Shown here one piece after another: positions 1 through 6,469 of a stretch of 6,469 nucleotides of DNA. The stretch spans positions 1-6,469 of IMG/VR virus record IMGVR_UViG_3300045988_151419; one strand, given 5' to 3'. How positions within the stretch are numbered: position 1 is the first letter of the stretch; every line of letters begins with the position of its first letter. This DNA is from a virus. Under the pieces are notes generated by a model. The model did no database searches and was not told where the DNA came from. It saw nothing but the letters and a program-made list of their open reading frames with translations. The translations under genes and the position numbers were made by a program.

Positions 1-119
1 ATCGAGATAAAGTTTTTACAATCTTATGTATACGCTGATGATGAAATTCAAGCGTATGAAAAACTAATTAAACACCTCACTCACTATGTACAATTTAGAG
101 TTAAAAACGCTTATGGGAC
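1..119. repeat. Terminal redundancy of a circular genome: 1-119 is identical to 6351-6469, giving a unit length of 6,350 nt. Features inside it are listed once.
   Basis: Exact 119-nt match between the window start and the window end, read directly from the sequence. This is the typical artefact of a circular contig. The partial second copy of the lipoprotein ORF start at 6436 is the same locus. Confidence 0.9.
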
Positions 120-379
120 TGATTTGTTCCACACTCAAGAAGATTTGGGTAACCCTGACTTTGAATAAAAAGCGGTTGTTGATTGTTGTCCTTTCCGCTT
201 CTGTTGCCGCTGTTGCTCTGCTCGTTATATCTTGCGGCACTACCCGAACCGTTGTCCGAACTCAGGGCAAAGGTACTACTAATGCTCAGATTAGTGTTAC
301 CACCAATAATCCTACAAGTGTTTCAGTTGAAACGCGTTTGGATAGTACCAAATTGCAAATCAATAAAACTGGTAAATAA
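86..379 (+). CDS. Small putative lipoprotein. The ORF is 97 aa from ATG 86; the TTG at 161 or ATG at 113 are possible true starts. The signal peptide N-K-K-R-LLIVVLSASVAAVALLVIS is followed by Cys50 (nt 233-235), and the mature part is ~47 aa and Thr/Asn/Ser/Val-rich.
   Basis: The translation shows a positively charged n-region (KKR), a 19-aa hydrophobic h-region and a lipobox-like V-I-S-C. The stop overlaps the rep start (TAATG at 377-381), indicating translational coupling. Function is unknown. Confidence 0.45.
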   Translation: MYNLELKTLMGLICSTLKKIWVTLTLNKKRLLIVVLSASVAAVALLVISCGTTRTVVRTQGKGTTNAQISVTTNNPTSVSVETRLDSTKLQINKTGK

Positions 380-1620
380 TGTGCTTTTGTCCAATAACTC
401 GTAAAATTGAAAATCACGGTTTTACACGTATAGTTACACATCCTTGCGGTAAATGCTTGGAATGTGTTGCTCAGTTGCAAAACGACTGGGCTAACCGTAT
501 GTCTGACGAGTTCATGAATTGGAAACACGCATATTTTGGCACTTTCACTTATGGAAATTCTTGCATCCCCTATGTTGACGTTATTCCCTCGGAATTGCCT
601 GCCGCGAAGTTGGCTTACCTTGTTCAGGCTATAAAAAAAATTCCTCAGTCTGCTTCCCTTGCTAAGGCGCGTGCGCGTAAAGATGTATTTTCTGATTATC
701 TTACGCCTGATTCTCTTGAAAAGTTGTCTATCCGTGTGCCTTATGTTTCTAAATACGACATTCAGTGCTTTATTAAGCGTGTCCGTACATCCTACGAACG
801 CAAGTATAATGAGCCTTTGGAACTGAAGTATTTTATTTGTAGCGAGTATGGCCCTTGCACCTTGCGTCCTCATTACCACGGTATTTTCTTTTCAAACTCG
901 TGTTGGGAACGGCTTGCGCCGTTCTTCTATAAACATTATACCTACGGTGCTATTCGTGGATTTCACGAACTTGAATTGCGTAACGGTAATATTAGTGATG
1001 CTTGCGCTTACTGTGCTAAATATTGTTGCAAGCCTGCGGAGTTTGAAAACCCCTATGTCGTTGCCGGTCTTATCCCTCGTCCTTTTCGTCTAATGTCCAA
1101 AGGTATCGGAGAGGTTGAGCGCGCTAAGGTAGTCGCTGCTGCTAACTCTTACAAAGGAATCAAGCGTAATGGTTGTAAAGAGTACTACGGATATAATCCC
1201 GTTTTTCTCGAATGGCTGCGGCTCAAGTTGTCGCGTTTCTCTCAGGATAAATCCGGTAATTGGCATACCGTTAAGCAACCTCGCTATTATACTGATAAGT
1301 GTTTCCCTCAAAGTGTACATTATTCACAACTTTATAAATTACAACCCAATGGCGAATATCAACCCGTTATTGTCAAGACTATGCGGAAAAATTGCGATAG
1401 TCTGCTATTCCTTGCATATACGCGCTATATGGAAAATAGATATATTCAACTATGTAATGACAAATTTCAGTCGCTTAAAGCCCAATTTCCTACCTTGTCA
1501 GATTCGGAAGTCATTCATAGGGCTGAAATTGAACGTGTTCAGAATCTTCGCGAACGTTACGCTAAACGGCTATCGTCGTTTGTCAAATTTTATGGTAAAT
1601 CATTCCTAAAGGATACCTAG
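379..1620 (+). CDS. Replication initiation protein (rolling-circle HUH endonuclease, Microviridae VP4 / phiX A-like), 413 aa.
   Basis: Translation contains motif I YFGTFTY, motif II RPHYHGIFF (HUH) and motif III AYCAKYCCK (the YxxKY catalytic tyrosine pair). An N-terminal Cys cluster (CFCP...HPCGKCLEC) is typical of gokushovirus-like Rep proteins. Length and position next to the capsid gene fit. Confidence 0.9.
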   Translation: MCFCPITRKIENHGFTRIVTHPCGKCLECVAQLQNDWANRMSDEFMNWKHAYFGTFTYGNSCIPYVDVIPSELPAAKLAYLVQAIKKIPQSASLAKARARKDVFSDYLTPDSLEKLSIRVPYVSKYDIQCFIKRVRTSYERKYNEPLELKYFICSEYGPCTLRPHYHGIFFSNSCWERLAPFFYKHYTYGAIRGFHELELRNGNISDACAYCAKYCCKPAEFENPYVVAGLIPRPFRLMSKGIGEVERAKVVAAANSYKGIKRNGCKEYYGYNPVFLEWLRLKLSRFSQDKSGNWHTVKQPRYYTDKCFPQSVHYSQLYKLQPNGEYQPVIVKTMRKNCDSLLFLAYTRYMENRYIQLCNDKFQSLKAQFPTLSDSEVIHRAEIERVQNLRERYAKRLSSFVKFYGKSFLKDT

Positions 1621-1644
1621 TTAAAACTTAACCTATAAAAAACT

Positions 1645-3375
1645 ATGTCACATTCTTCTAAACTATTCGAGCAGCACAAGGTTCAGATAAAAAATAAATC
1701 TGGCTTTGACCTTGCTCACTCTAATTTTCTCACGCAGACGTGCGGAACTTTGACGCCTGTTTGTACCGTTCCTATGCTCCCCGGGGATAGTATTTCTCTC
1801 GGTTTTATGAGCCAAATCAAGTTGCCGCCTATGGCTACTTCTTTCTATGGTCGTGTCGATTATCGTCTTGAAGCATTTTTTGTACCTTACCGCATTCTTT
1901 GGGGCGGTTGGGAAAATTTCTACACTCAGCCTATTGCCGACCCTTACGGTTCTATGGTTGATCGGCCACATTGTTTGCCTAATTTTGTTGGTTCTCTTGT
2001 TCCTGATTTGCTTAATTCTATGTTTGGCCGTGGCTCTCTTGCTGATTACTTGGGTTTGAAAGGTTATAAACTTGCTTCTTCTCCTACTAGTGCTCAGGTT
2101 GCGCTTAACAATATTCTTCCATTTCTTGCCTATCATAAAATTTATGATGATTGGTATCGTAATGCTAATATTCAGAAGCCGGTTTTTGTTCGTCATAATA
2201 GTTATGATGAAAAAACTGCTTTGTCTGGTTGTCCTTATATAAGTACGACTATTACTGCCGGTAATATTTCGACCGGAGGTATCCCCGCTACTAATATTAA
2301 CATTGATGTTGCTGACTCTAACTCGCCACTTACTTCTATAGGTTTTGCTAATTATTCTGACGCTCCGCGCGGTGTTGTTCATGCTCAGCCTGTTTTTTCG
2401 GACGGTAAATCTTTATTTTCCTTAAGACAGCGCAATTGGTCTAAAGATTATTTTACTACCGCTACTCTTTATCCTCAGCAGTCAGGTACTACCGCGGGTG
2501 CTTCTATTTCTGCTGTTACTCCTGCCGAGGGTGATTCTACTCAGTTTACTATTTCTCAGATTAGGCAGGCTAATATTCTTCAGAAATGGCTTGAGCGCAA
2601 TAATATAGCCGGTTCTCGTTATGCCGACCAAATTCGCGCTACCTTTGGCGTGCTTCCGTCTGATGCCATGCTCGATCGTGCTATTTTCTTGGGTGGTAGT
2701 TCTTTCGGCATTTATACGAATTCTATTGCTCAGAGCGTTAATTCTGATAAGGGCTCTTCTGCTAACCCTTATTCCGGTACTGCTGGTGCTGACTCCGGTC
2801 AGACTTCCGGTTTTGGTAAAGATAGCCTAATTGATAAATTTACGGCTACCGAGCATGGTATTATAATGGTTATTGGCTCTATTGTTCCTCACGCTACATA
2901 TTCCACCGGTTCATCTCGTATGTTTGCTATGTCAAGTTATGGCGATATTCCTAATCCTATGTTTGAGGGCCTTGGACAGGAAAGCATTCTTAACGCTGAA
3001 CTTATTCCGGTTTCTTTCGATTCTTCTTTTGATAACAAGGTTTTCGGGTATGTGGACCAGTATGCTTGGTGTAAATATATGAATGACGAAGTCCATGGTC
3101 TTCTTGTCGACGGTGAAAATCTTGAATCTTTTGCGCTTCAGCGTTCTTTTGATTTAAATTCTGCTAAATTGGATAGTTCTTTTATTACTATTCCTACTGA
3201 CTATCTTGACCAAGTTTTGGCTGTTAAACAATCCGGTTCGGGTTTTTCTGCTTGGGCTAATATGTATTTTGACATTAAGAAAACTTCTCTCCTTAGTCAG
3301 TACACTATTCCTACGCTCGGAGAGCCTAAGAATACTCATACCGAAAGTATCCCTAACACTGGTAGATACCTATAG
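1645..3375 (+). CDS. Major capsid protein (Microviridae VP1 / F-like), 576 aa.
   Basis: The N-terminal region (KSGFDLAHSNFLTQTCGTLTPVCTVPMLPGDSIS) matches the conserved FD.S/H....T..G.L.P....LPGD signature of microvirus MCPs. Conserved YDDWYRN and LQKWLERN blocks flank a Ser/Thr/Gly-rich variable insertion. It is the longest ORF and is similar in size to gokushovirus VP1. Confidence 0.9.
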   Translation: MSHSSKLFEQHKVQIKNKSGFDLAHSNFLTQTCGTLTPVCTVPMLPGDSISLGFMSQIKLPPMATSFYGRVDYRLEAFFVPYRILWGGWENFYTQPIADPYGSMVDRPHCLPNFVGSLVPDLLNSMFGRGSLADYLGLKGYKLASSPTSAQVALNNILPFLAYHKIYDDWYRNANIQKPVFVRHNSYDEKTALSGCPYISTTITAGNISTGGIPATNINIDVADSNSPLTSIGFANYSDAPRGVVHAQPVFSDGKSLFSLRQRNWSKDYFTTATLYPQQSGTTAGASISAVTPAEGDSTQFTISQIRQANILQKWLERNNIAGSRYADQIRATFGVLPSDAMLDRAIFLGGSSFGIYTNSIAQSVNSDKGSSANPYSGTAGADSGQTSGFGKDSLIDKFTATEHGIIMVIGSIVPHATYSTGSSRMFAMSSYGDIPNPMFEGLGQESILNAELIPVSFDSSFDNKVFGYVDQYAWCKYMNDEVHGLLVDGENLESFALQRSFDLNSAKLDSSFITIPTDYLDQVLAVKQSGSGFSAWANMYFDIKKTSLLSQYTIPTLGEPKNTHTESIPNTGRYL

Positions 3376-3399
3376 TTTCACTTTAGATGATTATTTTTT

Positions 3400-3690
3400 A
3401 TGTTACATAAATCTATTTCTTCAGGTCAAGACCGTGGGCCCGCTTTTGAGGGCCTTGCTGTTAATATCAACGAAATTATCGAACACCATACGATTTCGGA
3501 CGCTTCTCAGGAAGTTTCTAGTAATGAACTTCAGCGTATAGAAGATATTGGATTTCGCATTAACGAGGATTTCGATATGTTCCGCATTCTTAAGTCTCAG
3601 TTAGGTGTAAAAGCCGCTAACGCCGGTATAGGTGCTTCTCAGGGCCCTACGCCTACCGCTGACACTCCTGCTGCTCCTGCTGCAGAGTAG
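3400..3690 (+). CDS. Small acidic hypothetical protein (96 aa) with a Pro/Ala/Thr-rich C-terminal tail; possibly a scaffolding-type protein.
   Basis: The ORF lies directly after the MCP stop and shows the same T-biased third positions as the confirmed genes. Net charge is acidic (many D/E), as in internal scaffolding proteins of microviruses. No motif was recognised. Confidence 0.45.
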   Translation: MLHKSISSGQDRGPAFEGLAVNINEIIEHHTISDASQEVSSNELQRIEDIGFRINEDFDMFRILKSQLGVKAANAGIGASQGPTPTADTPAAPAAE

Positions 3691-3699
3691 TCAACCCTT

Positions 3700-3760
3700 T
3701 ATGGGCGGTCGCTATATTGGCGGCCGTCCGCATTTCTTGCGAAATATATGCGGATTGACA
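3700..3760 (+). promoter_or_regulatory. GC-rich dyad-symmetry block. Its parts are gggcggtcgc...ggcggccgtccgc, a palindromic cggccg at 3721-3726, and a 7-bp hairpin tccgcat(3727-3733)/atgcgga(3748-3754) immediately followed by TTGACA (3755-3760).
   Basis: Inverted repeats were read directly. The block sits between the 96-aa ORF stop and the 105-aa ORF start, a position consistent with a terminator/attenuator followed by a -35-like hexamer. The -10 partner is weak (gaataa at 3778-3783). Confidence 0.3.
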
Positions 3761-3803
3761 CACTCCTAAAAATCAATGAATAAAACAAAATTGTTACAAA
3801 ATT

Positions 3804-4121
3804 ATGGGTACTACTGCTATTATCGCCGGTATTCTTTCGCTTCTTGCTTCAATTGGCGGATTTGCCGGTAAGAAGTTACACGATAAAAATGCTCGTGAAA
3901 TGACTAATGCGATGTCCGATGTAGATGATTCCTCAAAAGGTATTACTGTTGCTTCTGACGTCACCGGTTTGGCTGCTCAGGCTCTTTCTATGTTTTCCGG
4001 TTTCGGCTCTCTTCCGTCTAAGCCTAATTCTACGCAGGTAGCCACCGAATACTTTAAGCGTTGGAATGCCGGTCGCGCTAAGTCGCTTGGTCTTGCGTTT
4101 AATCCTCAAAATTTGAAATAA
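3804..4121 (+). CDS. Small membrane protein (105 aa). It has an N-terminal transmembrane helix (TTAIIAGILSLLASIGGFAG) followed by KK, then a hydrophilic body and a basic C-terminus.
   Basis: The hydrophobic 20-aa stretch followed by lysines is visible in the translation. The stop TAA at 4119-4121 lies 1 nt before the ATG of the next gene at 4123, indicating tight coupling. Codon bias is consistent with a real gene. Confidence 0.5.
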   Translation: MGTTAIIAGILSLLASIGGFAGKKLHDKNAREMTNAMSDVDDSSKGITVASDVTGLAAQALSMFSGFGSLPSKPNSTQVATEYFKRWNAGRAKSLGLAFNPQNLK

Positions 4122-4122
4122 T

Positions 4123-5406
4123 ATGGCTGTTTCTTTTTGGGACAAAGTCGCTGCTGTTTTTGGCGGTAAACGTCCAGAATATTACGAACAACGTAGGCGG
4201 CAACGCAAGCAGAATAACGGTAAGGAACAAACCTCGCTTGTCGGTCAAGGTCTTGGCGATATTTTCGACCGTTATGGCAATATGGGCGCCGATGAAAATG
4301 GTGTCCGTACTTCTGCCGGTAATTCGCGCGGTGATTCATTCAACAATACTCAACTTGCAGAAATGCAGTATAACCACGATGAAGCGCAATTGGATAGGCA
4401 ATGGCAAGAGGATATGTATAGAAAATATCAATCACCAGAAGCACAAATGCGACAGTATGATGATGCCGGATTAAACCGCGCTTTGGCCTATAATGGTGGT
4501 GTTGATATCAATGGCCCGTCCGGCGGTTCTGCTGCTTCCGCTGATGTTGCTACCTCTGGTGAATCTCCTACTAATGGCTTTCAATCTGCTATGAGCGTTA
4601 TGTCAACCGTTATGGAGTTGCTTTTAGGTGGTTCTAACCTTGCCACTTCTTTGAAGTCTATTAGTAACCAGTCGCGTAGTGTTGATAATGATACCTCGCG
4701 TACAACTGCCCAAAATGCTCTTACTTCTGAAGAGCAAAAGAAAACCGCTGAGGAAACTAAAGGTATTAAGATTGACAATGACCGCAAACAACTTCAGTTC
4801 ACTATTGAACAGGCTACTAAAATGGATGTTATTTCTCAGAAGCAGGCAGAGGCGGCGATTGCTGAATGGAATGCTGACGTGTTGGCCGGTACTCCTGTTG
4901 AAGAGGCTACTAAGAATATTCTTACCAAGTATAATATTGATAAGGAAAATCTTGAAAATCTCAAGTCTGATACCGATAAAAATAAGGCTTACTCTGCTCT
5001 AATTCGTGGTCGTAATACTCGTGAAGAGGCTAAGAATCGGGCCGATATTGCTGAGATTCAGGCGCGTATTGAGGAAATCGGTACTGAGGCTGAGTTTAAC
5101 CGTGTTCATACTGACGTAGAAAGGGAAATACATAAATCCGCTAAGGCAAAAGCATTTTACGACAAGTATGCTGCTGATAACAATTTGCCGCTTGGCGATT
5201 ATACTGCTATCGCTCTTTTCCGTAACTATCATTTGTGGTACACCAAGACTCAGGATGCCAAGTATCTTACTATGATGAACGAAATCCGCGATATGCTTTA
5301 CAAGAATATGGGTAAAGATTTCAAAATTACGTGGAAAGATGTCGGCGGTTACCTTTCTGGTGCTCTCAATTCCGGCATTAAAGCCGCTGCAATTCTTGCC
5401 AAATAA
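4123..5406 (+). CDS. Probable DNA pilot / minor capsid protein (VP2 / H-like), 427 aa.
   Basis: It has a basic N-terminus (RRRQRKQNNGK), a Gly/Ser-rich segment (NGGVDINGPSGGSAASADVATSG) and a long charged heptad-like E/K/Q-rich C-terminal half (EEQKKTAEETKGIKIDNDRKQLQF...EIQARIEEIGTEAEF) typical of coiled-coil tube-forming pilot proteins. The size and position after the capsid gene are as in gokushoviruses. Similarity was not verified. Confidence 0.55.
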   Translation: MAVSFWDKVAAVFGGKRPEYYEQRRRQRKQNNGKEQTSLVGQGLGDIFDRYGNMGADENGVRTSAGNSRGDSFNNTQLAEMQYNHDEAQLDRQWQEDMYRKYQSPEAQMRQYDDAGLNRALAYNGGVDINGPSGGSAASADVATSGESPTNGFQSAMSVMSTVMELLLGGSNLATSLKSISNQSRSVDNDTSRTTAQNALTSEEQKKTAEETKGIKIDNDRKQLQFTIEQATKMDVISQKQAEAAIAEWNADVLAGTPVEEATKNILTKYNIDKENLENLKSDTDKNKAYSALIRGRNTREEAKNRADIAEIQARIEEIGTEAEFNRVHTDVEREIHKSAKAKAFYDKYAADNNLPLGDYTAIALFRNYHLWYTKTQDAKYLTMMNEIRDMLYKNMGKDFKITWKDVGGYLSGALNSGIKAAAILAK

Positions 5407-5442
5407 ATGCTCTTCGTTTGGTGGAACGTCGTACCGTTTTAT

Positions 5443-5480
5443 AGGCTATAATCTTGTATTATAGCCTTATTTACTTTCGT
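5443..5480 (+). terminator. Candidate intrinsic terminator: a perfect 10-bp stem aggctataat(5443-5452)/attatagcct(5458-5467) with loop cttgt, followed by a T-rich tract (tatttactttcgttatttcttattttatttt).
   Basis: The inverted repeat was read directly. It lies 37 nt after the pilot gene stop and is followed by a long T-rich run. The stem is AT-rich with only 3 GC pairs, so its strength is moderate. Confidence 0.5.
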
Positions 5481-5511
5481 TATTTCTTATTTTATTTTCA
5501 TTCTTACAAGA

Positions 5512-5547
5512 CGCGCGCGCGCGAAACCGTATAATCGCGCGTGCGCG
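5512..5547. promoter_or_regulatory. Alternating (CG)6 tract cgcgcgcgcgcg (5512-5523) paired with cgcgcgtgcgcg (5536-5547). It is a near-perfect 12-bp GC dyad that could form a hairpin or cruciform and has Z-DNA potential. The loop aaaccgTATAATcg contains a TATAAT hexamer.
   Basis: Read directly from the sequence. Pure alternating CG is highly atypical in a genome that is otherwise T/A-rich. It is a candidate origin or control element. Confidence 0.5.
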
Positions 5548-5563
5548 ACCTTGTCCACCTCAC

Positions 5564-5612
5564 GTGGCGGCCGATTGCTGGCCTTTAATAGCAATGCAAT
5601 CTTGGCCGCCAC
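5564..5612. promoter_or_regulatory. Long nested hairpin. The outer 9-bp GC stem gtggcggcc(5564-5572)/ggccgccac(5604-5612) continues into gattgc(5573-5578), which can pair with either copy of a tandem GCAAT-GCAAT (5591-5600). Candidate replication origin (+ strand nick site) or complementary-strand priming structure.
   Basis: Reverse complements were verified by eye: rc(gtggcggcc)=ggccgccac, rc(attgct)=agcaat and rc(gattgc)=gcaatc. The hairpin is adjacent to the CG dyad and is followed by an extreme AT block. Confidence 0.5.
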
Positions 5613-5646
5613 ACTATCTATAAATATATAAATAAATAAAATATTT

Positions 5647-5678
5647 TTTGGTTATGTAATTTTAAGTATATATATTTG
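5647..5678 (+). promoter_or_regulatory. Candidate Bacteroidota-type promoter: TTTG (5647-5650), a 20-nt spacer, then TAtaTTTG (5671-5678, matching the -7 consensus TAnnTTTG). The predicted transcription start is ~5685.
   Basis: Matches the published Bacteroides sigma-AB promoter architecture (-33 TTTG / -7 TAnnTTTG, ~19-21 bp apart). It sits in an extreme AT-rich block (5613-5680). Host assignment is inference. Confidence 0.3.
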
Positions 5679-5734
5679 CCATCAAATTATGATTTGTTAT
5701 GCTTATAACTGATGATCCTAATAAAGAAAAAGAA

Positions 5735-5751
5735 ATCCTATTATATAGGAT
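5735..5751. promoter_or_regulatory. Perfect 7-bp palindrome atcctat-tat-ataggat followed by GC then a T-run (ctcctttttcttggtgtgtttctttttgg). Possible weak terminator or protein-binding site.
   Basis: Inverted repeat read directly; T-tracts at 5756-5760 and 5772-5779. Confidence 0.3.
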
Positions 5752-5777
5752 GCTCCTTTTTCTTGGTGTGTTTCTTT

Positions 5778-5805
5778 TTGGCTTTGTCCTATTGATTGTT
5801 ATAAT
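5778..5805 (+). promoter_or_regulatory. Candidate sigma70-like promoter with an extended -10: TTGGCT (5778-5783), a 16-nt spacer, then TGtTATAAT (5797-5805). It would drive the 76-aa and 82-aa ORFs and, through coupling, possibly the lipoprotein and rep genes.
   Basis: Hexamers were read directly. It lies ~80 nt upstream of the ATG at 5885 and overlaps the imperfect inverted repeat ttgttataatgttaa / ttaacataacaa (5796-5831). Confidence 0.3.
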
Positions 5806-5884
5806 GTTAATACAGTAACTTAACATAACAATAAATTGTATAACACATCATGTTGCGATATTAACCCACAAATTTATTTATATT

Positions 5885-6115
5885 ATGGCTACTTTCAAAA
5901 TTACATTTAACTCCATTTCGCTTGGTCGGCGCATTTCGTTTGCTCAGTACATCGGCTTGAAGTCTGATTATATGAGCCTTCGTTCTTTTCTTGCTGCCTG
6001 TGCTGTCATCTCTAAGGAGCCTGAGAAGTTTCCATGTATTCAGGTTGTCGTTCATGATTCTGACGGTACTACTTGTATTTCCTCGGATTTTCTCTTTAGT
6101 GCTGTTCGTGTATGA
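5885..6115 (+). CDS. Hypothetical small protein, 76 aa.
   Basis: First ORF after the long non-coding region, with T-biased third codon positions like the confirmed genes. Its stop overlaps the next ORF's start (ATGA at 6112-6115). No recognisable motif. Confidence 0.4.
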   Translation: MATFKITFNSISLGRRISFAQYIGLKSDYMSLRSFLAACAVISKEPEKFPCIQVVVHDSDGTTCISSDFLFSAVRV

Positions 6116-6360
6116 AACGAGTTGCTGCTAAATCTCCTACCGGTATCGCGTATATAGTTGCTAAGTATATTAAGACTCCTGCCGGTGTTTGTTCTATGAT
6201 TCAGGAAAGTGTTACTGACTTCGGTTCATCTTCAAATAAGTGCTATTTTGGTCATGAAGATCTAAAGGATTTCTTGCGATACGTTGATTATCTCGACCAT
6301 AAATATACTGACTTGGGTTATAAAGTTCATCGTGTATGCAATATTTCGATATCGAGATAA
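6112..6360 (+). CDS. Hypothetical small protein, 82 aa, rich in Tyr/Lys/Asp. It may be a small non-structural, packaging or DNA-binding protein, but this is not established.
   Basis: The ORF is translationally coupled to the upstream 76-aa ORF by an ATGA overlap. It ends inside the terminal repeat (stop at 6358-6360, equal to positions 8-10). Codon bias is consistent with a real gene. Confidence 0.4.
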   Translation: MKRVAAKSPTGIAYIVAKYIKTPAGVCSMIQESVTDFGSSSNKCYFGHEDLKDFLRYVDYLDHKYTDLGYKVHRVCNISISR

Positions 6361-6469
6361 AGTTTTTACAATCTTATGTATACGCTGATGATGAAATTCA
6401 AGCGTATGAAAAACTAATTAAACACCTCACTCACTATGTACAATTTAGAGTTAAAAACGCTTATGGGAC

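Follow-up and report, generated by a model that had tools for sequence, protein, structure and literature searches.

The window analysed here is a stretch of viral DNA of 6,469 nucleotides (nt), positions 1 to 6,469 of IMG/VR record IMGVR_UViG_3300045988_151419, and carries the genome of a microvirus. Near its left end, directly upstream of the replication initiator gene rep, lies a small gene (86-379, + strand) whose product of 97 amino acids (aa), MYNLELKTLMGLICSTLKKIWVTLTLNKKRLLIVVLSASVAAVALLVISCGTTRTVVRTQGKGTTNAQISVTTNNPTSVSVETRLDSTKLQINKTGK, is predicted to be an exported lipoprotein. The open reading frame (ORF) and its parts are arranged as follows, all on the + strand; helices are those predicted by AlphaFold2, with the predicted local distance difference test (pLDDT) score where it applies.

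86-379, +: prolipoprotein ORF, 97 codons plus TAA, from ATG86 (the likeliest start) to the TAA at 377-379.
86-160, +: N-terminal extension, residues 1-25, predicted helical (helix at residues 3-23, pLDDT 81-88).
161-163, +: alternative TTG start, which would give a canonical 24-residue signal M-NKKR...VIS/C; conserved in 7/7 close relatives.
167-175, +: basic n-region K28-K29-R30; NKKR is conserved in window-like relatives.
176-232, +: uncharged hydrophobic core L31-S49, 19 aa, predicted membrane helix (helix at residues 26-49).
224-235, +: lipobox V47-I48-S49-C50, with Cys50 (233-235) as the predicted lipidation and cleavage site.
233-376, +: mature lipopeptide C50-K97, 48 aa, Thr/Asn/Ser-rich, without a second Cys.
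299-316, +: signature T72-T73-N74-N75-P76-T77, columns near-invariant in alignments A1 and A2.
341-349, +: D86-S87-T88, which fits the Bacteroidota O-glycosylation sequon; near-invariant in A1.
377-381, +: TAATG junction, at which the lipoprotein stop overlaps the rep ATG (379-381).

A preliminary description of this DNA, made from its letters and translations, had noted the KKR cluster, the 19-residue core and the lipobox V-I-S-C, as well as the TAATG overlap and the presence of ATG 113 and TTG 161 as further possible starts, and all of these are borne out by the translation and the coordinates. It had also reported a Thr/Asn/Ser-rich mature peptide of about 47 residues; the peptide is 48 residues long, with 12 Thr, a combined T, S and N content of 42% and a single Pro. 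Based on 54 sequences, AlphaFold2 places the two helices listed above in the precursor and predicts no fold for the mature peptide (pLDDT 51-57).

In a single genome the lipobox pattern is not beyond chance: when the mononucleotides of this T-rich genome are shuffled, 36% of the shuffles contain an ORF of 60 aa or more with a K/R residue, an uncharged run and a lipobox in succession (mean 0.43 per genome). The significance of the gene therefore derives from conservation and selection alone. A protein search returned 66 homologues, and a profile search of 1.84 billion cluster representatives returned 64 clusters at 50% identity with lengths of 46-156 aa. A second profile search yielded 154 clusters at 90% identity, which is a lower bound for the family. 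Nearly all carriers are contigs of 5-7 kb with Phage_F and rep, the rest being microvirus prophages in long bacterial contigs, and every match obtained by tblastn against GenBank phages belongs to the Microviridae, where the gene is labelled 'hypothetical protein' or left unannotated.

Selection acts most clearly on the exported part. Over 45 codons starting at Cys50 in 15 diverse loci, synonymous diversity (pS) is 0.70 and nonsynonymous diversity (pN) 0.14, giving a pN/pS of 0.20, while the other two frames of the same DNA give 1.8-1.9 and contain stops. Compared with close relatives, the mature part has an omega of 0.004-0.03 at a dS of 0.76 to >2 (saturated). The hydrophobic core varies yet remains hydrophobic (pN/pS of 0.28 inside the group and of 0.82 when all lineages are compared). 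The ORF at 86-379 is thus a genuine protein-coding gene under very strong purifying selection. The preliminary description had named a lack of conservation, or a dN/dS near 1, as what would speak against the gene; many homologues and strong constraint were found instead. That the ORF is a chance frame, or is conserved on account of a DNA element or an overlapping gene, is given practically no credence: lipobox-like patterns do arise in the 36% of shuffled genomes and the first 83 nt overlap another selected gene, but in the mature region the synonymous sites have reached saturation and the amino acids are nearly fixed, the alternative frames behave as non-coding DNA, and the 154 homologue clusters are spread over three genomic contexts. 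Conservation through an overlapping gene or DNA element is ruled out for the mature part and is true of nt 86-168 only.

Searches of Pfam, PHROGs, PADLOC, NCBIfam and PDB sequences gave no assignable family match, in agreement with the earlier remark that such a protein is no recognised Microviridae gene class, and lipoproteins are unmentioned in the microvirus literature consulted. The family of unknown function phrog_6427 was matched below threshold (E = 0.018). Two kinds of match were discarded since they cover the signal peptide only, namely that of the L001 homologue to DUF6567 (E = 0.0063, below the cut-off) and those to NCBIfam models with E > 0.004; labels of the style L001-L058 denote related loci compared with the window. 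The family is previously undescribed and specific to microviruses of gut Bacteroidales, which are Alpavirinae-like and often temperate. Locus L016, a contig of 14.7 kb, carries two identical copies of the lipoprotein gene (424-705 and 6723-7004) at a distance of 6299 nt, and represents either a tandem prophage or an assembled concatemer.

The lipoprotein signal was judged by rule-based checks with the PROSITE pattern PS51257, and 176 family members were scored for their lipobox positions from the gene-called starts. The Cys is the sole invariant column of the family-wide alignment of 54 sequences (A2) and is invariant in A1 too. Position -1 is occupied by S (159 members), A (9), G (7) or N (1), hence by S, A or G in 175/176, and position +2 is Gly in 168/176. 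The core pattern of PS51257 fits 129 of the 176 members, the uncharged run has a family median of 19 residues, and a further Cys in the mature part is present in only 4/176. By these measures, the product of the ORF has every sequence hallmark of a signal-peptidase-II lipoprotein. A Tat signal is ruled out, as RRR is found only in L028 and most members have KKR, KR or K-W-x-K.

An atypical property is the distance of the Cys from the N-terminus. PS51257 expects it within positions 15-35, which is the case for 37/176 gene-called members, whereas it lies beyond position 35 in 139/176. In the window the Cys is at position 25 when counted from TTG161 and at position 50, outside the range, when counted from ATG86. 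The signal, described earlier as almost textbook, therefore deserves that name only from TTG161; from ATG86 it is preceded by an N-terminal extension of 25 residues. Canonical short signals are found in 11/176 members and in L054-L058, where the Cys does lie at the distance set by PS51257, and the same mature domain follows signals of 17-20 residues in MKTRFSLLLSLLAILTLNS/C, MKSLLLSLFTLCTLVILPG/C and MKTTLAILASTSLLLFAS/C. Furthermore, the sub-threshold NCBIfam alignments all involve the signal regions of lipoprotein families and start at residue 28-29.

These data also bear on the possibility that the protein is a non-lipidated type II (N-in, C-out) membrane-anchored protein, in which the long n-region blocks signal peptidase II and the Cys serves otherwise. 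The remote Cys of the 139 members and a median uncharged run long enough to span the membrane would fit such a protein, as would L051 (MG945522), which encodes a similar protein with S-Y-G replacing S-C-G. However, an invariant Cys combined with S/A/G at -1 and Gly at +2 is what a lipobox demands and not what a disulphide or another role would demand, and a second Cys is nearly always missing. In addition, the members with signals of 17-20 residues are textbook lipoprotein precursors, and the sub-threshold NCBIfam matches are without exception to lipoprotein signal peptides. A non-lipidated anchor is consequently considered highly improbable.

In Bacteroidota, the signal for export of lipoproteins to the cell surface is located just after the Cys and consists of K-(D/E)2, or of SDDDD in B. 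fragilis (PMC5080379). An acidic residue at positions +2 to +6 is found in 0/176 members, the window having C-G-T-T-R-T, and the product is therefore predicted to face the periplasm; the same argument, made earlier for the window from its non-acidic residues after the Cys, thereby holds family-wide. The Bacteroidota O-glycosylation sequon, D-(S/T)-(A/I/L/V/M/T) (PMC8550257), occurs in 31/54 representatives of the family, where shuffling predicts 14.1, an about two-fold enrichment, and clusters at mature positions 36-37. This enrichment is a weaker, additional sign of a protein that may be exported in a Bacteroidota host.

The choice of start codon is complicated by a second, unannotated gene in another frame, which was reconstructed over the terminal repeat of the window.

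1-168, +: 60-aa gene in another frame, running from ATG 6336 across the junction to the TAA at 166-168.

Its product (MQYFDIEIKF...GNPDFE) is encoded by DNA that overlaps the first 83 nt of the lipoprotein ORF and also the end of the ORF at 6112-6360. Among 7 genomes, its pN/pS is 0.09 over positions 1-84 and 0.24 over 85-165, and its synonymous diversity, 0.62 outside the overlap, is down to 0.23 within it, as dual coding predicts. The 60-aa gene has no Pfam match and is uncalled by gene callers in any related contig.

ATG86 is conserved in 7/7 close relatives. ATG113 is ruled out as the start, having been replaced by ACG in L003 and L014, and TTG161 is conserved just as completely because the other frame requires its F-E-stop codons at this place. 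In the outgroups L015 and L023, no start codon is available close to the basic cluster, and translation must therefore yield the long form. The segment preceding the Cys is at least 30 aa long in 159/176 members, and the extension often contains a helix-Pro-Trp-Lys motif (MEKIKKLLxWLKxxPxWxK), even without any overlapping gene. Taken together, ATG86 is the likelier start compared to TTG161, and we conclude that the N-terminal extension is a real but dispensable feature of the family. The mature product is identical with either start.

Proteins of related build occur in other microviruses. In L031 (554-814), L035 (4-414), L036 (4909-5319) and L038 (2736-3137), a homologous extension and signal (MEKVIELLSSWLKSAPKWVKVV..YLLSS/C) precede an unrelated mature domain (CSAIR...); these loci belong to related microviruses with capsids 45-47% identical. 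The signal module and the mature module thus appear to be exchanged independently. L051 encodes in the slot before rep (5192-5470) a protein of 92 aa with an N-terminal helix, a membrane helix and the S-Y-G sequence mentioned above, which has the same build as the lipoprotein precursor and no lipidation site.

The surrounding genome agrees with the earlier assignment to the microviruses. The rep gene (379-1620, +) matches PF23343 and phrog_942, the capsid gene (1645-3375, +) matches Phage_F in Pfam (7.6e-55), and the pilot gene (4123-5406, +) matches phrog_8689 and pilot protein families. All genes of the window are on the + strand, with several small ORFs among them. Bases 1-119 are identical to 6351-6469, and this terminal repeat of 119 nt shows the window to be a complete circular genome, 6350 nt in size, whose ends were assembled redundantly. 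An F-type capsid, a rolling-circle rep, a pilot protein and a circle of about 6 kb are together characteristic of the Microviridae. An ORF of 105 aa at 3804-4121 has an N-terminal membrane helix (MGTTAIIAGILSLLASIGGFAGKK) and ends 1 nt before the pilot gene, which itself is without the membrane helix expected for VP2/H; the two look like a split pilot protein, an arrangement that also occurs in relatives. The otherwise AT-rich non-coding region contains two GC-rich hairpins (5506-5612), with a folding energy as DNA of -40 kcal/mol and a z of -7.55 versus shuffles, which may represent an origin, a terminator or a packaging element.

The position of the lipoprotein gene depends on the lineage. 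When small lipoprotein genes upstream of rep were sought in other microvirus genomes, as the preliminary description had proposed, they were found there and at other positions as well. In 16/19 loci, at most 1 nt separates the lipoprotein gene from the one that follows; window-like genomes have rep there, and a second lineage (L001, L002, L007 and L025) has the capsid gene. In a third lineage (L049/50 and L054-57), the lipoprotein gene is located between the capsid and pilot genes. Gaps of 13 and 6 nt precede rep in L003 and L020, respectively, and L024 has an extra ORF in between. The coupling to rep reported earlier is thus a real overlap in the window, but an incidental one that does not define the gene.

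The identity of the mature peptide is also incongruent with that of the neighbouring proteins, as the following comparisons with the window illustrate.

L021, L028 and L045: mature peptide 88-96%, rep 31-34%, capsid 40-42%.
L025: mature peptide 91%, rep 43% over 11% of rep, capsid not alignable.
L030: mature peptide 57%, rep 60%, capsid 68%.
L015: mature peptide 68%, rep 76%, capsid 73%.

It follows that either the gene has moved between lineages, or a target unrelated to the capsid keeps the peptide nearly fixed. As a pattern of sequence identities, this incongruence points to an exchange of this small gene among deeply divergent microvirus lineages.

Many relatives are prophages. Their integration sites lie in bacterial contigs of 15-396 kb and are in every case next to genes for a TrmA-like methyltransferase and a Na/Pi cotransporter, and prophages of several microvirus lineages all occupy this one host locus. 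The host can be narrowed to Bacteroidales only, via the L001 contig, which is part of an uncultured Bacteroidales metagenome-assembled genome. L002, an IMG/VR contig of 5.9 kb from the second lineage, contains at 3-86 a stretch of 28 codons identical to the host Na/Pi cotransporter gene at L003 7121-7204, and therefore two microvirus lineages use the same site in the same host species. A peptide that tracks the host is unsupported, as L002 and L003 share this identical host fragment yet have peptides that are 55% identical.

The prophage in L007 is flanked by a dif-like direct repeat of 27 nt (TAAATTGTGTAACAAA...) at 7678-7704 and 13305-13331, 5627 nt apart, and a similar sequence is found in the window at about 5833-5860. 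The sole Bacteroides-type promoter-like site near the small-gene cluster (+ strand) is TTTG-N19-TATATTTG at 5647-5678 (consensus TTTG-N19-TAnnTTTG). This site lies upstream of the attP-like site, and the same is true of L007 (13220-13255). In L003, consensus matching detects no promoter-like motif between attL and the lipoprotein gene. Provided that these promoters are real, integration would cut the gene cluster off its promoter, since the promoter-like site is upstream of the att site. Going by these consensus matches, such a separation could be a form of repressor-free prophage silencing.

With respect to function, the preliminary description had offered a choice between superinfection exclusion and lysis of the o-spanin kind. 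The o-spanin-like role is disfavoured, while lysis and exclusion both stay as candidates. O-spanins (Rz1-like) and gp11 of T1 are likewise small outer-membrane lipoproteins encoded by phages, often from genes that overlap the adjacent one, and mature Rz1, at about 40 aa, is similar in size. However, neither an i-spanin partner nor an endolysin was found here, the peptide with its 1 Pro in 48 residues is not Pro-rich, and it has no Cys for a disulphide, additional Cys being confined to the 4/176 members mentioned above. The overlapping 60-aa ORF has no hydrophobic segment that would suit an i-spanin. Furthermore, gp11 of T1 has a C-terminal membrane helix that is absent from the window protein, and the NCBIfam model spanin2_2 aligns with E = 0.053 over the signal peptide only.

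We tentatively favour, at somewhat less than an even prospect, the view that the lipopeptide is a lysis or release effector resembling the colicin lysis proteins, rather than an exclusion factor of the Llp/Cor type. Whatever its function, the precursor is predicted to insert in the inner membrane by its uncharged helix, after which Cys50 would be lipidated and the protein cut by signal peptidase II. This would leave a lipopeptide of 48 residues, Thr/Asn-rich and largely unstructured, tethered on the periplasmic side and, with no acidic export signal, not flipped to the cell surface. According to the lysis model, the lipopeptide would be made in lytic growth as part of the main phage operon and, acting from the periplasmic side, would attack some conserved part of the host's envelope, resulting in progeny release. 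As a single-gene lysis or release factor akin to the colicin lysis lipoproteins, in which the lipidated peptide and a persistent signal peptide both contribute, it would use its long N-terminal extension and signal helix as part of the effector or of its timing.

Several observations argue for this role. The genomes concerned have no other lysis candidate: an M15 peptidase is present in no lipoprotein-bearing locus examined, and no other endolysin domain was found. Conversely, the M15 peptidase genomes phiHBP1, L046 and L047 have no member of the lipoprotein family. The lipoprotein gene is present in 12/15 complete GenBank relatives with a capsid identity of at least 40%, which makes it close to core in the clade, and it is situated in overlapping frames without a promoter-like site of its own. 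Moreover, the N-terminal module is kept where the mature domain has been replaced (L031 and L035/36/38), or a non-lipidated analogue occupies the slot (L051), and the identity of the mature peptide does not follow that of the capsid.

The colicin lysis proteins (Lysis_col; ColE1 Kil and pCloDF13 BRP) are likewise very small lipoproteins of small replicons. Producing them is enough to make the envelope permeable, and the unusually stable signal peptide matters as well as the lipidated peptide. The window peptide is also small (48 aa) and has a signal region that is conserved and atypical. In contrast to it, the colicin lysis proteins are plasmid-encoded in Enterobacteria and have mature parts of about 28-33 aa with another composition; the window has no Pfam match to them at E <= 0.1, and lysis by the window peptide is only predicted. 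Protein E of phiX174 offers a second precedent, as it is also a small membrane-targeted protein of a minimal phage, encoded by a partly overlapping gene, which achieves lysis without an endolysin. Protein E is not a lipoprotein, and its membrane helix is the active part and acts on MraY. There is no sequence similarity between the two, and in the family described here the exported peptide is the most conserved part.

A number of points weigh against the lysis role. The protein has no homology to lysis proteins in Pfam (Lysis_col and Rz1), PHROGs or NCBIfam. The anti-correlation with the M15 peptidase is phylogenetically confounded, because the three peptidase genomes belong to another lineage, and three such genomes are too few to establish mutual exclusion. 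L032-34, L039, L052 and L053 have neither lipoprotein nor peptidase, and with several relatives of this kind the gene is not universal and looks accessory. Small lipoproteins of temperate phages are classically exclusion factors, and many carriers are prophages. Rapid evolution is typical of the known single-gene lysis proteins, but this mature peptide shows extreme conservation. The promoters are recognised by consensus matching only, and one internal -7-like motif is present in L007, 160 nt ahead of the lipoprotein gene. Finally, the long n-region could impair cleavage.

The chief competitor is superinfection exclusion or receptor masking by a periplasm-facing lipopeptide of the T5 Llp, Cor or TrbK entry-exclusion type, which we regard as possible but rather doubtful. 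Such a peptide would bind and inactivate from inside the adsorption protein, plausibly a SusC-like TonB-dependent transporter, or the route of DNA entry; it would protect lysogens and infected cells and spare the progeny from debris and vesicles. T5 Llp and Cor (of T1-like and lambdoid phages, with FhuA exclusion) are likewise small phage lipoproteins facing the periplasm, and their gene can adjoin that of the receptor-binding protein. Similarly, in two lineages the lipoprotein gene directly precedes that of the capsid protein, which is the receptor-binding protein. Near-identical peptides in unrelated microvirus lineages resemble the situation of Cor, which is common to otherwise unrelated FhuA-dependent phages. 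Exclusion would also suit carriers that are often prophages at one conserved host site, a gene that is missing from some relatives and takes three genome positions as accessory genes do, and a disordered mature part that, in a small lipoprotein, could fold on its partner. In addition, hosts resist the Bacteroides microvirus phiHBP1 at the adsorption stage, and this resistance is correlated with phase variation of susC/susD (PMC13064476).

However, the family has no homology to Llp, to Cor or to any exclusion family of PADLOC or PHROGs, and the window peptide differs from Llp and Cor in having a long extension, no disulphide Cys and no promoter of its own. The identity of the peptide does not track that of the capsid. 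The gene sits in overlapping reading frames and is not a self-contained moron; in a window-type prophage the stretch from attL to the gene contains no promoter-like site, and the putative promoter would be severed by integration. The exclusion genes of gokushovirus prophages (Kirchberger et al. 2021, cited in PMC9239249) are likewise small accessory genes of temperate microviruses placed between core genes. Their regions are reportedly hypervariable, and they are not said to encode lipoproteins, whereas the window gene is under extreme purifying selection and its peptide is among the most conserved of the genome.

Another envelope-directed role in the lytic cycle, such as the tethering of replication, assembly or DNA delivery, or an effect on outer-membrane vesicles or lipoprotein traffic, seems unlikely. 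It would be in line with the tight joining of the gene to rep or the capsid gene, with the conserved N-terminal cytoplasmic helix followed by a membrane helix, and with the non-lipidated protein of the same build in the same slot of L051. On the other hand, it is the exported peptide that is most conserved and not the cytoplasmic extension, and the members with a short canonical signal have no cytoplasmic part.

Returning to the lysis role, a more specific version is put forward with more reserve than the general one: the lipopeptide may be the missing lysis effector of the peptidase-less Bacteroidales microviruses, acting periplasmically on a conserved Bacteroidota envelope target, with the extended signal peptide aiding its action or timing. 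If true, single-gene lysis by a lipoprotein that works on the periplasmic side would be without precedent. Candidate targets would include the biogenesis of lipoproteins or of the outer membrane, and a synthase of peptidoglycan or the regulator of such a synthase, and the near-invariant peptide containing TTNNPT would mark a new druggable weak point of gut Bacteroidales.

Small periplasmic lipoproteins encoded by phages are already known as a kind. What is new is this family, which is confined to microviruses, has an extended signal, is conserved to an extreme degree and is annotated in none of the searched libraries. Published surveys of gene content held exchange between deeply divergent microvirus lineages to be rare, and the family suggests that small genes do move between them. 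Microviruses rank with the most abundant phages in the guts of humans and animals. To our knowledge, nobody knows the exit route of those outside the phiX174-like group, a small number of genomes that encode an M15 peptidase being the exception. The exported protein described here, which is conserved, unannotated and encoded by most of this virus's relatives, offers an experimental handle on the question of microvirus lysis and defence. If the protein is a lysis factor, it would reveal a new envelope target in Bacteroidota; if it is Llp/Cor-like, it would represent the first exclusion mechanism of Bacteroidales microviruses and a pointer to their receptor.

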